Positions 870-8,338 of a stretch of DNA of 64,000 bases are shown in pieces. Where the stretch lies: assembly GCA_019187405.1 (NCBI GenBank), contig JABAQZ010000027.1:39610-103609 (forward strand), given 5' to 3'. A model generated the notes under the pieces. The model was not told the DNA's origin. It saw only the letters and a list, made by a program, of their open reading frames with translations, and ran no database searches. This DNA comes from Ignavibacteria bacterium (lineage in GTDB: Bacteria; Bacteroidota; Ignavibacteria; Tepidaquicellales; Tepidaquicellaceae). Numbering within the stretch: position 1 is the stretch's first letter; each line of letters opens with the position of its first letter. The position numbers were made by a program, and so were the translations under genes.

Positions 870-927
870 AATAATAAAATAAAAACGCTTCAATTTTTTC
901 CGAACCCAATGAAAAAACTAAAGCGTT
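870..927 (-). terminator. Intrinsic terminator-like hairpin acting as the riboswitch expression platform
   Basis: Minus strand reads AACGCTTTAGTTTTTTC-attgggttcg-GAAAAAATTGAAGCGTT (about 17 bp stem including G-U pairs) followed by TTTTTATTTTATTATTTT. It lies between the TPP aptamer and the receptor start codon. Confidence 0.7.
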
Positions 928-937
928 AAAAAAATCT

Positions 938-1012
938 TAACTTCCTTCGCCGGCATTATCCGTAGCAGGTTCGAGGGTTTAATCTCAGCTTGTGTCAGCA
1001 CCCCTTGTAAAA
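938..1012 (-). promoter_or_regulatory. TPP (thiamine pyrophosphate, THI-box) riboswitch aptamer
   Basis: Minus strand reads AGGGGTGCTGACACAAGCTGAGATTAAACCCTCGAACCTGCTACGGATAATGCCGGCGAAGGAAG. This carries the hallmark GGGGTGC..CTGAGA..ACCC..GAACCTG..GGATAATGCC.GCGAAGGGA blocks of the THI element. Confidence 0.85.
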
Positions 1013-1164
1013 TTTCCTATAAAAAGAGCTGATTAAATGTATTTTAAAGATGATCCAATTACAAGTTAATTTAAGATAAAAAAAATTTTTAAAAATTAAA
1101 TCCGAGTTGCTGAAATTTCCGTAATTTTGATTAGAATTTAATAAACTTTTGAAAGGAATTAAAA

Positions 1165-1608
1165 ATGAAAAAACAACTCGGATTTTTTCTTGCAGCAGTT
1201 TCACTTTTATTAATTTTAAACGGGCTGACAAAAGTTCATGCACAGGAAAGTCTTTATAAAAGACTCGGCGGTTATGATGCGATTGCCGCTGTTTCCGATG
1301 ATTTTATTTACAGGCTGGCTACAAGTCCTGATTTAAAAAAATTCACAATAGGTTTGAATGCCGATTCACAAAGAAAATTAAGACAACATCTTGTGGATTT
1401 TATCTGCAGTGCAACCGGCGGTCCTTGCTTTTACATCGGAAAGGATATGGAAACGGCTCATACTGGTTTGAATATCACAAAGGAGGAATGGAATATCGGC
1501 GCAGGCTTGCTCGCGGAAACGCTTGATAAGTTTAAAGTTCCGGCAAAGGAAAAGGAAGAACTGCTTGGCGCAGTGTCTTCACTTGAATCCAAAATCGTCG
1601 GCAAATGA
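1165..1608 (+). CDS. glbN: Group I truncated hemoglobin (trHbN-like) with N-terminal Sec signal peptide
   Basis: After the signal-like MKKQLGFFLAAVSLLLILNGLTKVHAQ comes the typical trHb start SLYKRLGGYDAIAAVSDDFIYRL, and a proximal-His region DMETAHTGLNITKEEW. Confidence 0.85.
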   Translation: MKKQLGFFLAAVSLLLILNGLTKVHAQESLYKRLGGYDAIAAVSDDFIYRLATSPDLKKFTIGLNADSQRKLRQHLVDFICSATGGPCFYIGKDMETAHTGLNITKEEWNIGAGLLAETLDKFKVPAKEKEELLGAVSSLESKIVGK

Positions 1609-1640: not shown

Positions 1641-2231
1641 TCATAAATCAAGATTATCAACAACAAGCAGAAGAGTGCAGCCGTTTTTAGTGGACAAAGC
1701 TCCGTGACGGCTGCCGGCTTCTGCATGATGAAAATCTCCGGGACCAAGAATTTTACCTTCTGCAATTACATCGCCTTCTATAACAAAACATTCTTCGGCT
1801 CCGTGATGAACATGCGATGGAAATTCAACGCCGGCTTTTACTTTCATCAGAAGCATTGAGTATCCCTTTTTTAAATTCTGTGATAGCAATTTAACTTCGA
1901 TGCCTTCAACCGGATGCTGCTGCCAATCTTGTGAATCGGAATATATAAATTCAAAATCATGATTATGAATATCCGAATCTCCGCTGCGTTTTTCTTTTAG
2001 CTTTTCAAATAAACGAGATTTTACATTTGCCTGAAGTTCAGGTACGGATTTTCTGCCGAGAGTTAATTTTGTGAGCAAAGAAAGCAGTTCATAAAACTCC
2101 GAAATACTTTTTCTCTCGTCGCCAATTGAAGACTTAATATAAGATTCAGCATCACCGTATTTCTCAAGATCTGCTGCTCCCAACAAATGCATTATCAAAT
2201 CATCTTCAAACATGAATTCGGAGTTTTTCAT
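1641..2231 (-). CDS. ChrR-like cytoplasmic anti-sigma factor with C-terminal cupin domain
   Basis: Starts 7 bp downstream of the ECF sigma gene. C-terminal cupin motif FPSHVHHGAEECFVIEGD...GDFHHAEAGSRH. No TM segment. Confidence 0.7.
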   Translation of the reverse strand: MKNSEFMFEDDLIMHLLGAADLEKYGDAESYIKSSIGDERKSISEFYELLSLLTKLTLGRKSVPELQANVKSRLFEKLKEKRSGDSDIHNHDFEFIYSDSQDWQQHPVEGIEVKLLSQNLKKGYSMLLMKVKAGVEFPSHVHHGAEECFVIEGDVIAEGKILGPGDFHHAEAGSRHGALSTKNGCTLLLVVDNLDL

Positions 2232-2237
2232 TTTTCT

Positions 2238-2804
2238 TCAGATTAAATGTTTAAGTTTGTTTCTTAAAATCATCATTGCTGTCCTCATTCGGGTTTTTAC
2301 GGTTCCGAGAGGAATTTTGAAATGCTCTGCAAGTTCGGATTGGGAATAACCTCTGAAGTATGCAAATTCAATAAGTTCTTTTTGATCATCTTTCAGCTCT
2401 TTCAGAGCATCGGCAATTTCTGCTCTGTGTTTTTTCGAATCTGCATGTTTTTCCGGATTATCCGAGTCATCCGCAATATCATAAAATCTTTCGATGTCTG
2501 TTTCGCCGGTTCTTTTTTTAAAACTTTTGCTTCTTAATCTGTCAATGGCTTTGTTACGGGCAATTTTTACAATCCATGAGATAGGGCTTCCGAGACTTTT
2601 ATCATAAGTATTCACTTTATCCCAAATTTGTATAAACACTTCCTGAAGTACATCTTCGGCTTCCGATTCATTTTTTAAAATATAAAATATCAGACTGAAG
2701 ATATGACGAGAATGAATGTCATAGAATTTACTTAAAGCGTTTGTATCTTTTTCTGAGATTTTTTCAAGAAGTAACAGGTCGGTATTGACATCCGGTTCTG
2801 TCAT
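2238..2804 (-). CDS. ECF-type RNA polymerase sigma-70 family factor
   Basis: Region 2 (EAEDVLQEVFIQIWDKVNTYD...SWIVKIARNKAIDRLR) and region 4 (ELIEFAYFRGYSQSELAEHFKIPLGTVKTRMRTAM) signatures. Confidence 0.9.
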   Translation of the reverse strand: MTEPDVNTDLLLLEKISEKDTNALSKFYDIHSRHIFSLIFYILKNESEAEDVLQEVFIQIWDKVNTYDKSLGSPISWIVKIARNKAIDRLRSKSFKKRTGETDIERFYDIADDSDNPEKHADSKKHRAEIADALKELKDDQKELIEFAYFRGYSQSELAEHFKIPLGTVKTRMRTAMMILRNKLKHLI

Positions 2805-2826
2805 GCGGGATATTGTAAAAAGAATT

Positions 2827-4443
2827 TTAGATTAACTTTTCGTTCAATTCAAACAATATTCGGTTAAGATCCGGACCGAATATATTATAAGCTTTAGCTG
2901 CTCCACCTTTTGTAATAAAAGGGGGACTGTTAAAGCTAAGCATGTTAATTTCCAGGAAAGTCGAGATATAATTTTTCATCATCACAAGCCATTCGGTTTC
3001 AATTTCATTAAATACTCTTCCGTTCTTTTCGTTTTCCATAATCCACTTATCAAACTCCCTGTCAACTTTGTCGGAAAATGGCACAAGCTTGTCAATTTTA
3101 CCAATTGCAAACTGTGTCAGCGAAATGATGTTTGCCGGATTCTTTTCTTCTTTGAGCGGTTTTACGTTGTTGTTATCAAGTCTGTAAAAAGCATTCCATA
3201 TTTCATCTGGAGTAATTTCATAAGGTGGTTTGCGCAATTCACGAGATACTTCTTTTATGTCGTCAAAACTTATGCTCTGATGCCCGTTTTTATTGCTGCT
3301 TATGATTTTTATTGCGGTGAGGTCCTTTTTATGAGAATCAATAAAACTCTTGAATTTAAAAACAATATCTTCGGATCTGTCTTTTGCAGCCTGCTCAATT
3401 GATGAAGTATTAATTTTTTCCCGGTTTCTGTCTTTTATTTTAAGCAGCGTATATCTGAATTTCGGATTATCAAAAGCCCTGCAGGCTTCATCAATCAGTG
3501 TTTCCGATGCAGTTCTGATTTCTTTATCGCTCGGCAGATATTCTTTGTTGTTGTTACCATACATTTCTTTGGCTTTGTTAATCTGATTTTCAACTTTGAT
3601 TGAATTGATCAGCAGATTTATTTCGTCTTTAAGACTCTTAATCGGCGGGTTCATTTCAGAACCAAGTGTTAGAAGTTCCTGAATGTCATCTTCAGTAAGA
3701 TTCTTTTCAATTCTTGTAAGATTGTCTATTAGAGAAGAAATTGTAACTTCATCTCTTATGCCGATTGCAACTGACTGAATCAATGATTCGAGCGTAAAAG
3801 ATTTTACAATTTCTTGTACTGTTTCAGTTTTTATTTTTACGGTGGCTACTTTTGAGGCAAGATAATAGCTTAGAAATGCGGCGGCAGCTCCGGCCAAGAC
3901 ATCAGCTACGTATGCCATCTTCAAAAAAATTGGAGAAAGAAAAATCAGAATACTCCAGATTAAAACTAAAATAAAGCGATTTAACTTTAGCTTAAAATAA
4001 ATTATGGCACATAATGTCGCAGCAGCAGCATGCCAGCTCGGGAAAGTATTATACGGCTTAACGGAAACATACAAAGAATTAATAGCTTCCAAGAAAAAAC
4101 CGTCAGATTTTACTACAGGCCGTATCGCATTATGTACCGGTACAAACGCATGGAAAAAATTTACTATGCTCAAGAGAATCAGTACAGATAACAAAAACTG
4201 CGAAAGATCTGCCCTAAAACCCTTAACAGCAAAAAACACACCGCAGAATATAAGTAGAAAATTGACTGAATAATAAAATATTATAAAAAAAGGAATACGA
4301 GGCAAGCTATGATCAGCGGAAAACATCATCGATACATAACTACTTTCTGATGGAAAGTCTAAAACGGACATAATATAAAGCTGTATTAATGCAAGAGCAA
4401 TTAATACAACATTCATTAAATTCATTTCTCTGAATTTAGTCAT
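2827..4443 (-). CDS. Multi-pass membrane PAP2-like domain, coiled-coil, and type I HsdR C-terminal (EcoEI_R_C-like) domain fusion protein
   Basis: The N-terminal ~200 aa are hydrophobic, with FPSWHAAAA (PAP2 'PSGH'-like) and YVADVLAGAA. The C-terminal ~140 aa (..IISLTQFAIGKIDKLVPFSDKVDREFDKWIMENEKNGRVFNEIETEWLVMMKNYI..FNSPPFITKGGAAKAYNIFGPDLNRILFELNEKL) match the pattern of the HsdR C-terminal tail. Confidence 0.6.
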   Translation of the reverse strand: MTKFREMNLMNVVLIALALIQLYIMSVLDFPSESSYVSMMFSADHSLPRIPFFIIFYYSVNFLLIFCGVFFAVKGFRADLSQFLLSVLILLSIVNFFHAFVPVHNAIRPVVKSDGFFLEAINSLYVSVKPYNTFPSWHAAAATLCAIIYFKLKLNRFILVLIWSILIFLSPIFLKMAYVADVLAGAAAAFLSYYLASKVATVKIKTETVQEIVKSFTLESLIQSVAIGIRDEVTISSLIDNLTRIEKNLTEDDIQELLTLGSEMNPPIKSLKDEINLLINSIKVENQINKAKEMYGNNNKEYLPSDKEIRTASETLIDEACRAFDNPKFRYTLLKIKDRNREKINTSSIEQAAKDRSEDIVFKFKSFIDSHKKDLTAIKIISSNKNGHQSISFDDIKEVSRELRKPPYEITPDEIWNAFYRLDNNNVKPLKEEKNPANIISLTQFAIGKIDKLVPFSDKVDREFDKWIMENEKNGRVFNEIETEWLVMMKNYISTFLEINMLSFNSPPFITKGGAAKAYNIFGPDLNRILFELNEKLI

Positions 4444-4561
4444 TAACTTTTATAGGTTTTCATGGTTTGTATGCGTAAATTAATTATTATCGATTAGCAT
4501 TTCAAGATTGAATTAAATATTCATTTTGATGTCAAAAAAATTGTGAAAGAAGGATCCCTGA

Positions 4562-5182
4562 CTATTTCTTTTTTGCAATTACCGAATAAACATGCCAATG
4601 TTTCTTTTCTCCTGTTGAAGTCTCACCGTCTTCATCCTTTTCATTAAAGTATTCAATTGTAAAATTATTAAACATGCCGTTAATTTTATTTTTTTCAAGG
4701 AATGTCATGTCAGAAAATTTAGACCAGTCATCATTTAATCCGAAAAAAACTCCCGAAAATCTTCCGCCTGATAATACGGAATTTTCAATTTTCATCCAAA
4801 GCTCATCAAAGTGTTCGGGTAAGCAGAAAGGAAGACTATAGCTGGCATTAACTAAATCAGCGGGTGGTAAATTAATTTTTTCAAATGATGATACGACCAA
4901 AGTTAATTTGTTCCGGAATTCCGGTGGAAGAGCGCCAATAATAATGTCAATTCCCGATTGCTCTTTATCAATTGCAAAAACATTCCAGCCTCTTTTTAAA
5001 AGTTCAAATGTGTCACGTCCCGAACCGCAGCCAAGATCAATTGCCAGTAATTTTTCCGAAACAATATTCTCTTTGTCAAATAATTCCAGAGCCGAAATAA
5101 GTGTTTCTCGCGGCGGACTGCCCTTTATGGCAGTGTAATATTCGCTCCATTTAAAATCGTCTTTGTGGAAAATTTCAGTCAT
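4562..5182 (-). CDS. Class I SAM-dependent methyltransferase (small, TehB-like size)
   Basis: Motif I LAIDLGCGSGRDTFELLKRGWNVFAIDKE. Confidence 0.8.
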   Translation of the reverse strand: MTEIFHKDDFKWSEYYTAIKGSPPRETLISALELFDKENIVSEKLLAIDLGCGSGRDTFELLKRGWNVFAIDKEQSGIDIIIGALPPEFRNKLTLVVSSFEKINLPPADLVNASYSLPFCLPEHFDELWMKIENSVLSGGRFSGVFFGLNDDWSKFSDMTFLEKNKINGMFNNFTIEYFNEKDEDGETSTGEKKHWHVYSVIAKKK

Positions 5183-7534: not shown

Positions 7535-8338
7535 TTGAATATAAAAGAATTTATATCATCAGGCATTCTCGAAATGTACGCCTGCGGCGCATTAACAAAG
7601 GATGAATCAGCAGCTGTGGAAAAACTGATACGAAATAATCAGGATGTAAAAAATGAATTTGAAGAAATTCTGAAATCAATTATGCTTTTATCTTCTCTTC
7701 GACAAAAATCTCCCGAAGAGTCTGTAAAATCTTCTCTGTTAAAAAGTATCAGATTAAAATCCGGAATTAATAATGACAATTTGCAAAACGTGACCGAAAA
7801 ATCAAGCATAAAAAAATATTCTTACATGCTCGCTGCTGCCATTGTTTTATTGATGTTAAGTATTACTGGAAATATTTATTTAATTAAAAATCTGAAAGAA
7901 TATGAAAGACAGACTGCAGTTCTGAATGACAAGATTAAACTTGTGAATCAGGATTTCGATGCAGTTAATAATAAACTTATCAGGTCAACTGCAGATATGA
8001 AAATTGCAATGGATAAAAATTATAAAATGGTAATATTAAATGGACTTGAAAAATCTCCTTCCTCAAAAGCATTTGCTTTCTGGAATCCGGTTTCAAAGAA
8101 AGTTTATATCATGGTTGAAAGTCTTCCCATACCTCCGGTTAACTTACGGTACCAACTGTGGGCAATAAGCGGAGGAAAACCATTTAATCTTGGAATGATA
8201 GATCTCGATCCTTCAGACAATAGTCTTCATGAAATGAAAAACACCGATAATGTGCAGGCATTTGCCATAACTCTCGAACCCCAAAACGGCAGTCAGAATC
8301 CTACAATGACTGAAATGTATGCAATGGGAGAAATATGA
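7535..8338 (+). CDS. Anti-sigma factor, RskA-like C-terminal domain (TTG start in ORF track)
   Basis: One central TM (YMLAAAIVLLMLSITGNIYLI). C-terminus AFAFWNPVSKKVYIMVESLPIPPVNLRYQLWAISGGKPFNLGMIDL...AFAITLEPQNGSQNPT is typical of RskA-type extracytoplasmic domains. Confidence 0.7.
   Translation: MNIKEFISSGILEMYACGALTKDESAAVEKLIRNNQDVKNEFEEILKSIMLLSSLRQKSPEESVKSSLLKSIRLKSGINNDNLQNVTEKSSIKKYSYMLAAAIVLLMLSITGNIYLIKNLKEYERQTAVLNDKIKLVNQDFDAVNNKLIRSTADMKIAMDKNYKMVILNGLEKSPSSKAFAFWNPVSKKVYIMVESLPIPPVNLRYQLWAISGGKPFNLGMIDLDPSDNSLHEMKNTDNVQAFAITLEPQNGSQNPTMTEMYAMGEI

Follow-up and report, generated by a model that had tools for sequence, protein, structure and literature searches.

What does the C-terminal part of a type I restriction subunit do once it is anchored in the membrane and placed at the head of a sigma factor operon? 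The question is raised by a locus on contig JABAQZ010000027.1 of an Ignavibacteria bacterium, of which a stretch of 64,000 nucleotides was analyzed (the whole stretch is referred to as the window). Three minus-strand open reading frames (ORFs) lie within positions 1641-4443 and encode a membrane protein of 538 aa (2827-4443), an extracytoplasmic function (ECF) sigma factor of 188 aa (2238-2804), and a ChrR-like cupin protein of 196 aa (1641-2231). A gap of 22 bp separates the end of the membrane protein gene from the sigma factor gene, which in turn lies 6 bp from the cupin gene. These coordinates and gaps reproduced exactly those of an earlier note on this DNA, in which the three genes were regarded as apparently co-transcribed; the order, strand, and short gaps across orthologs fit such an arrangement, and we infer co-transcription. 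Both the domain make-up of the 538-aa protein and its arrangement with the sigma factor and the cupin protein are solid and unusual. As judged from sequence comparison, the protein has a two-part and not a three-part architecture, in which a dead PAP2 domain is followed by the whole post-helicase module of an HsdR subunit.

HsdR-derived C-terminal Module

The Pfam domain EcoEI_R_C was matched over residues 358-537 of the 538-aa protein (83.1 bits against a cut-off of 24, E = 3.1e-23) and at profile positions 1-162 of 163. The collinearity of the C terminus with the HsdR tail, as described in the earlier note, was thereby confirmed over nearly the full profile. The similarity to HsdR starts before this domain. 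The NCBIfam HsdR model PRK11448 aligned residues 230-537 with its positions 833-1118 of 1123, and BLASTP against the 913-aa HsdR P0064 gave a collinear alignment of residues 215-537 with residues 592-911 at 33% identity (E = 2e-56). P0064 carries the domains HSDR_N, ResIII (155-341), Helicase_C (447-549), and EcoEI_R_C (736-911), and its nuclease and motor span residues 39-549. Because residues 215-537 align with 592-911 of P0064, the segment previously taken for a charged, coiled-coil-like linker of ~200 aa corresponds to the helical part of HsdR located behind the helicase. The tail is composed of this helical region (~215-357) and EcoEI_R_C (358-537), and by these alignments the fusion retained the complete post-motor module. 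In the earlier three-part description the PAP2 region and the HsdR tail stand, but the separate linker does not. No PD-(D/E)xK nuclease, ResIII/DEAD, or Helicase_C match was obtained for the 538-aa protein with Pfam at E values up to 1.

AlphaFold2 modeled the tail as confidently all-helical, with a predicted local distance difference test score (pLDDT) of 87.2 for the tail alone and 87 within the full-length model. Its last ~35 residues were modeled as two helices with a Gly-Pro turn between them. In the full-length model (predicted template modeling score 0.44), a disordered hinge at residues 204-214 leaves the orientation of the two domains undefined. No match to the tail sequence was found in the PDB. 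The AlphaFold and Foldseek check that had been suggested for the tail was run with full-length and tail-only models against the PDB and BFVD, and it gave no tail match at E ≤ 0.001; the PAP2 domain alone found relatives. Because the tail has no structural match, this approach provided no clue to its function. Across the family, conservation is higher in the tail than in the membrane domain (identity of 54-92% for the tail compared with 47-80% for the whole protein), and the juxtamembrane residues 207-250 are the best-conserved part of the protein.

An exhaustive representative search with the tail returned 753 matches, and 10 non-family matches were sampled from the best 150. These were HsdRs, 5'-truncated HsdR fragments, or tail-only proteins of ~320-430 aa, and in none of the 10 was another non-HsdR domain joined to the tail. 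Clustering at 90% identity divides the full-length family into 63 clusters with lengths of ~538-547 aa, save three shorter ones (381-531 aa). All named sources are Ignavibacteria or unclassified Bacteroidota metagenome-assembled genomes, and the PAP2-tail protein was present in 6 of 41 relatives of the genome from which the window was taken. From this distribution and the absence of other tail fusions among the sampled matches, the fusion looks like a clade-specific invention of Ignavibacteria.

C-terminal regions of HsdR have been implicated in binding of the HsdS-HsdM complex (PMC2878639). Because the HsdR counterpart presumably serves to attach the motor to the methylase core, the tail may be viewed as a protein-docking module. 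The literature found contained no mention of EcoEI_R_C, named PF08463 only in a census of defense systems, and included nothing on the PAP2-tail fusion. Nor did it describe a function of the HsdR tail outside restriction-modification (R-M) enzymes, in agreement with the earlier note. The fusion is undescribed, and databases name it by its domains only.

Degenerate PAP2 Fold of the Membrane Domain

The membrane domain was matched by Pfam PAP2_3 at residues 52-195 (39.1 bits against a cut-off of 27, E = 8.7e-10). AlphaFold2 placed it in six long helices with pLDDT values of ~85-95, and the best Foldseek matches were SMSr (8ijq), IPC synthase (9vj4), Aur1 (9ivc), and LPP1 (9l0i), with a probability of 1.00 and weak E values of 0.07-0.5. 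In a charge analysis, Lys and Arg were clustered on the N terminus, on loops 2 and 4, and just past helix 6. Based on these positive-inside charges, the loops carrying the PAP2 motifs are predicted to be periplasmic and the C-terminal tail cytoplasmic.

The state of the catalytic motifs was read from an alignment of 25 family members. Motif 3 in the window is S170-P171-x5-A177-x3-D181 and does not satisfy the canonical SRxxxxxHxxxD. The family-wide pattern is S-P-x5-(A/T/S/N/G)-x3-(D/E), in which the nucleophilic His and the Arg are gone in all 25 members. In motif 1 (canonical KxxxxxxRP), R108 and P109 are present and the Lys seven residues upstream is absent; two members lack the Arg as well. 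Motif 2 (canonical PSGH) reads P135-S-W137-H138 in the window, and its His is replaced by Gln, Leu, or Asn in some members. Residues N95, R108, P109, P135, W137, S170, K175, and D181 are invariant or nearly so, and R108, P135, W137, S170, K175, and D181 sit near the periplasmic face. The PAP2-like region with a replaced motif-3 His was recognized correctly in the earlier note, and the suggestion made there of a noncatalytic domain appears to hold for the whole alignment. With the motifs in these states, the phospho-histidine chemistry of PAP2 enzymes would be unavailable. We therefore regard the membrane domain as a conserved pseudoenzyme with its triad broken in the entire family. The conserved pocket that remains would be the usual signature of a binding pseudoenzyme.

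A stand-alone, tail-less relative of the membrane domain was observed in genome G005 (L020:5986-6612; 208 aa, 35% identity, PAP2_3 at 6.7e-9). Its motifs are equally degenerate, with Ala in place of the motif-2 His and Asn in place of the motif-3 His, and the dead PAP2 module therefore also occurs alone. A word-based search for further stand-alone relatives of the membrane domain returned only a fragment of the same protein.

The Sigma Factor and the ChrR-like Protein

The sigma factor contains regions 2 and 4 only. Pfam matched Sigma70_r2 (2.2e-17), Sigma70_r4 (4.5e-12), and an ECF model, and TIGR02937 was matched with 118.4 bits (cut-off 42.9). The closest subfamily models are SigK-like, all of them under their cut-offs.

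The product of the third gene was matched by Cupin_7, the ChrR cupin-like domain, with 60.6 bits (cut-off 27, E = 1.4e-16). The score of 35.5 bits with TIGR02451 remained under the cut-off of 124.5. The cupin motif HxH...E...H is intact, and its residues H140, H142, E146, and H176, together with C148 and C185, are invariant in 13 orthologs. A profile of these orthologs matched the ChrR chains 3o14 (5e-5) and 2q1z (0.036) in the PDB via the cupin domain only. The N-terminal ~90 aa, presumably the anti-sigma domain, are poorly conserved, and the N-terminal ~100 residues contain no Cys. In 13 of 13 loci the gene lies immediately 3' of the sigma factor gene, overlapping it or at most 12 bp away. 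From this position, the ChrR-like protein is presumed to act as an anti-sigma factor that binds and inhibits the adjacent sigma factor.

In Rhodobacter, release of the sigma factor requires the cupin domain; the signal is membrane-derived, and how it is relayed to the cytoplasmic ChrR is described as unknown (PMC6852236). For this reason, a membrane protein at the head of such an operon deserves interest. Cupin, ChrR, or PAP2 context is unmentioned in the main text of the ECF reclassification paper.

An anti-sigma factor of the RskA_C type (2.6e-14) was also found in the window at 7535-8338 (+). It has no adjoining sigma factor gene and lies 4.7 kb from the SigK-like ECF sigma factor. A profile comparison of the N termini of the ChrR-like and the RskA-type protein was not significant, bar a short P..VK..L motif.

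Linkage of the Three Genes across Species

Loci from 27 GTDB species were examined, of which 26 were informative and one was ended by a contig edge; the window was counted additionally. The order protein-sigma-cupin on one strand was found in 13 of the 26 informative loci (14 of 27 with the window). Gaps between the membrane protein and sigma factor genes measured 9-69 bp, and the sigma factor and cupin genes either overlapped by 1-4 bp or were at most 12 bp apart. Among the sigma-less loci, six had a TonB-dependent receptor gene directly after the membrane protein gene and seven had neither. In a reciprocal test, metagenomes were searched with a ChrR-like profile, and loci were considered informative if they held a close ortholog (at least 42% identity) and enough upstream sequence. 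The PAP2-tail protein was encoded directly upstream in all 12 of these loci. The question raised in the earlier note, whether orthologs keep the linkage with the sigma/ChrR pair, is therefore answered in part: the pair is kept in the GTDB and metagenome loci counted above but is absent in 13 species.

In a maximum-likelihood tree of 26 proteins, the deepest branch, a clade of nine members, and the group of the window itself all show the linked state, and the linked/unlinked label needs only two changes. Linked species reach across the deepest split of the family (47-61% identity), and their unchanged three-gene core occurs in at least four flanking contexts. This pattern fits an ancestral linkage with two or three later deletions of the pair. 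The ancestral order appears to have been protein, sigma, cupin, thiamine pyrophosphate (TPP) riboswitch, receptor, MsrA, and the loci with an adjacent receptor have the appearance of precise deletions of the sigma-cupin pair. Judged from this pattern, the coupling to the sigma/anti-sigma pair is old but facultative.

One sigma-cupin pair, L074, was inspected further upstream. The ~1 kb before the pair (L074:2360-3407) contains no ORF of at least 80 aa and, by eye, resembles a frameshifted remnant of a small membrane protein gene and not of the PAP2-tail gene. None of the ORFs of L074 matched the PAP2-tail protein.

Conserved Element Upstream of the 538-aa Gene

On the minus strand of the window, the 538-aa gene is preceded by the element TTCAATCTTGAAATGC, a 14-nt gap, and TAATTT, which ends 33 nt before the ATG. 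Read directly, it contains a -35-like TTGAAA (4500-4505), a 17-nt spacer, and a -10-like TAATTT (4477-4482); a palindrome, TTCAA-TC-TTGAA (4501-4512), overlaps the -35 hexamer. The family-wide form is ATTCAATCTTGAAATGC, ~14 nt, and (G)TAATTT; nearly all loci carry it, at a distance of 29-53 nt before the ATG. The pattern occurred exactly once per fetched locus, each time upstream of the 538-aa gene. In genome G000 (3.78 Mb) there was a single exact copy, with eight one-mismatch sites compared with four in a control. Conservation of the element is well above the expectation from proteins that are ~55% identical.

Two identities of the element were considered and dropped. No Rfam family matched, which removed a known RNA. 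An autoregulatory promoter of the linked sigma factor was abandoned because the element persists in genomes without the sigma factor and no other copy was found in the loci or the genome. The element is instead a putative promoter of the 538-aa gene itself, probably with an operator, and the sigma-cupin pair most likely rides on this promoter.

Proposed Function and Alternatives

We tentatively favor a role of the 538-aa protein as a noncatalytic membrane sensor or scaffold from which the sigma/anti-sigma pair receives input or anchoring and which, in addition, functions independently of the pair. The degenerate PAP2 pocket would face the periplasm and bind, but not cleave, a phospholipid or lipid phosphate. 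On the cytoplasmic side, the complete post-helicase module of an EcoEI-type HsdR would form the output and act in protein docking. With the 538-aa gene as the first in a three-gene operon, transcribed from its own conserved promoter, the membrane protein would give the cytoplasmic ECF sigma factor and its cupin anti-sigma factor a membrane-proximal input or an anchoring site. The tail may contact either the ChrR-like protein or the sigma factor. Because the coupling is facultative, some further function of the protein has to exist for which the pair is not needed. A sensory or scaffold role wired to the sigma/anti-sigma pair had been suggested in the earlier note; linkage in about half of the species speaks for it, but as an obligate function it is weakened by the 13 pair-less species, the unchanged tail, and the sigma-independent upstream element.

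Several observations weigh against a functional coupling to the pair. The protein is retained without the sigma/ChrR pair in 13 of the 26 informative species. In three genomes that are 93-96% complete (G007, G016, and G020), the PAP2-tail protein is present and a ChrR-like gene was found nowhere in the genome. Conversely, G011 encodes a ChrR-like protein at 39% identity and no PAP2-tail protein, and the sigma-cupin pairs L074 and L075 (40% identity, Ignavibacteria-like context) as well as more than 50 more distant pairs likewise lack it. Pairwise identities of the tail were 0.53-0.70 by subregion and were the same within linked species, within sigma-less species, and between the two groups; just one trivial Ile/Leu position separates linked from sigma-less tails. 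Loss of the pair has therefore neither relaxed nor retuned the tail, and it follows that the partner of the tail is present in all these organisms or that the tail has a further role. The upstream element is present whether or not the gene is linked to a sigma factor. Finally, the N terminus of the ChrR-like protein matched neither the zinc anti-sigma motif (H...HxxxCxxC, HHCC) nor zf-HC2 or any other anti-sigma model.

These observations lead to the first alternative, co-expression without signaling. Here the membrane protein would have a role of its own, in binding or organizing lipids or as a structural pseudoenzyme; an autonomous sigma/cupin module would have landed behind its promoter in one Ignavibacteria lineage, and the products would never touch. 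Each partner occurs without the other, tail conservation is unchanged after loss of the pair, the promoter-like element is kept regardless of the sigma factor, and sigma-cupin pairs are a widespread stand-alone module, all of which agree with this account. However, the adjacency has lasted over the entire depth of the family and despite several rearrangements of both flanks, and the finding that all 12 informative close ChrR orthologs have the protein directly upstream is more than a chance landing usually leaves. We consider co-expression alone a possible, somewhat less likely explanation.

A dedicated relay would go further than the sensor or scaffold proposed above. In such a relay, the ligand of the dead PAP2 pocket would be an envelope lipid of the outer leaflet, either damaged or phosphorylated, and the HsdR module would capture or release the cupin anti-sigma factor and thereby free the ECF sigma factor. 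We regard this version as unlikely. If true, it would provide a concrete candidate for the route from membrane signals to cytoplasmic ChrR-like anti-sigma factors and the first nonrestriction function of the HsdR C-terminal module.

A connection to R-M was considered next, in which the tail would dock a type I methylase core (HsdM2-HsdS) and either tether it to the membrane or compete with HsdR as a decoy. In favor of this, the tail comprises the entire module to which binding of HsdR to HsdS-HsdM has been ascribed (PMC2878639), and genome G000 encodes a strong HsdM-like protein elsewhere (C5:20086-21084, 304 bits). However, strong HsdM-like genes were found in only three of five genomes with the PAP2-tail protein; G014 gave no strong HsdM match, and in G020 the HsdM gene is split by a stop codon. 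No other EcoEI_R_C protein was detected in G000, G014, and G016 (three of the five genomes), which consequently lack an EcoEI-type HsdR. Neither an HsdM-type methylase (N6_Mtase) nor a second EcoEI_R_C was found on the contig of the window (C13), in line with the earlier statement that no HsdM is nearby, and the PADLOC defense models matched none of the three proteins. The PAP2-tail gene is stable, whereas R-M systems vary between genomes. It is vertically inherited amid housekeeping neighbors (urocanase, the thiamine-riboswitch receptor, and MsrA) and not in a defense island, which makes a methylase-docking role quite unlikely.

The split N6_Mtase gene of G020 belongs to a decayed EcoEI-type type I system (C3:807967-814165). 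The methylase frame is interrupted by TAA, and a nearby frame of 157 aa contains an EcoEI_R_C fragment only.

The protein might alternatively be a ToxR- or CadC-like autoregulator that binds DNA while tethered to the membrane, in which the C-terminal PPF-x3-GG-x2-KA...FG-x-DL segment would form a helix-hairpin-helix-like (HhH) binder of the upstream palindrome. A genome-unique, strongly conserved, palindrome-bearing element does precede the gene in all lineages, and the two helices with a Gly-Pro turn predicted for the last ~35 residues would be compatible with such a binder. However, the tail is acidic (pI 5.4 overall and 5.9 over the last 44 residues), no HhH or helix-turn-helix model matched at E values up to 1, Foldseek found no DNA-binding fold, and the element also fits an ordinary -35/-10 promoter. 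We regard DNA binding by the tail as very unlikely. Least probable of all is that the membrane domain is still an enzyme that works through noncanonical residues (H98, H138, K175, and D181) and is regulated or localized by the tail: several polar residues at the periplasmic face vary little or not at all and the closest folds are the lipid phosphotransferases SMSr and IPC synthase, but the motif-3 His is absent in every member (A/T/S/N/G), the motif-3 Arg is Pro, the motif-2 His is Gln, Leu, or Asn in some, and to our knowledge all characterized PAP2 phosphatases and SMS/IPC synthases require the His-His-Asp triad.

The sensor or scaffold with facultative coupling to the pair is thus the reading that we prefer. 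Until now, discussion of the HsdR C-terminal module has been confined to its part in keeping HsdR on the methylase core. Cut from the motor, fused to a dead PAP2 domain, and under selection across an Ignavibacteria clade, it can serve outside restriction. Its repeated placement before an ECF sigma factor paired with a soluble cupin anti-sigma factor makes the protein a testable candidate for the membrane connection of ChrR-like systems. With uncultured organisms and every functional step drawn by inference, the present value of the locus is that of a lead.

Features of the Locus and Flanking Genes

The features of the module are collected in Table 1. In the window, the HsdR-tail gene is neighbored by genes for a TehB-like small methyltransferase, the sigma factor, the cupin protein, a globin, and a TonB-dependent receptor.

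Table 1. Coordinates of the three-gene module and its parts in the window
Feature	Position	Strand	Basis
Promoter-like element	4477..4512	-	5' of the 538-aa gene; putative promoter/operator
PAP2_3-fold membrane domain, residues 1-204	3832..4443	-	Pfam, AlphaFold2, Foldseek
HsdR-derived cytoplasmic all-helical module, residues 205-538	2830..3831	-	Pfam, NCBIfam, BLASTP, AlphaFold2
EcoEI_R_C domain, residues 358-537	2833-3372	-	Pfam
ECF-type sigma factor, 188 aa	2238..2804	-	Pfam, TIGR02937
ChrR-like soluble protein, 196 aa	1641..2231	-	Pfam Cupin_7

A TPP riboswitch (RF00059, 55.9 bits) was found at 925-1015 (-), directly upstream of the TonB-dependent receptor gene that follows the module. RF00059 was matched with 56-71 bits in nine relatives (L025, L026, L027, L031, L032, L036, L037, L042, and L047), and the riboswitch lies upstream of the receptor in all 10 loci. 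In sigma-less loci, it begins only 24-80 bp past the membrane protein stop codon. Because of this riboswitch directly upstream, the receptor is considered a thiamine-controlled unit of its own. Its membership in the module, in the sense of FecI-type signaling, was rejected; it lacks a signaling domain, and each of the 10 loci has a TPP riboswitch dedicated to it.

A truncated globin (Bac_globin, 1.9e-14) is encoded at 1165-1608 (+), convergent to the ChrR-like gene, and recurs at one linked locus (L040:5183-5626, -). An MsrA gene (PMSR, 1.2e-69) follows the receptor in several relatives. The globin and MsrA hint at an oxidative-stress neighborhood. On the 5' side of the module, a TehB-like small S-adenosylmethionine-dependent methyltransferase is encoded at 4562-5182 (-); it adjoins the module in no other locus.

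Comparison with Known Systems

The closest counterpart of the sigma-cupin pair is the ECF11 sigma-E-ChrR system of Rhodobacter sphaeroides and Caulobacter. There, too, an ECF sigma factor gene is followed by a translationally coupled gene for a soluble ChrR-type cupin protein with an intact HxH...E...H motif. The locus described here differs in that the HHCC zinc motif is absent, TIGR02451 is under its cut-off, the sigma factor is closest to SigK-like models and not to ECF11, and a membrane protein gene leads the operon.

The tail compares with HsdRs of the EcoEI/EcoAI type, whose last ~320 residues are collinear with residues 215-537 of the 538-aa protein, and the region is all-helical in both. 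Unlike HsdR, the 538-aa protein lacks the nuclease, the superfamily 2 motor, and an hsdM or hsdS neighbor, and its module is anchored in the membrane via a PAP2 fold. With the PAP2_3 branch (SMSr, the IPC synthase Aur1, and lipid phosphate phosphatases), the membrane domain shares the six-helix fold and motif loops that are predicted to face the periplasm. It differs from these enzymes in its broken catalytic triad and in the attached cytoplasmic tail of 334 residues.

A similar design is presumably found in the vertebrate PLPPR/PRG proteins, lipid phosphate phosphatase-related proteins that have lost the catalytic residues and of which some carry long cytoplasmic tails that signal via protein contacts. 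Both would pair an inactive six-helix PAP2 domain with a large C-terminal tail for protein interactions inside the cell. This likeness concerns a possible mechanism and not family: only the PAP2 fold is in common, the tails differ in origin, and the 538-aa protein is bacterial. The protein would represent a further, bacterial case of a recurring design in which a pseudo-PAP2 membrane domain is joined to a cytoplasmic output, and the locus as a whole is an ECF module to which an accessory membrane protein with a previously undescribed architecture is added.

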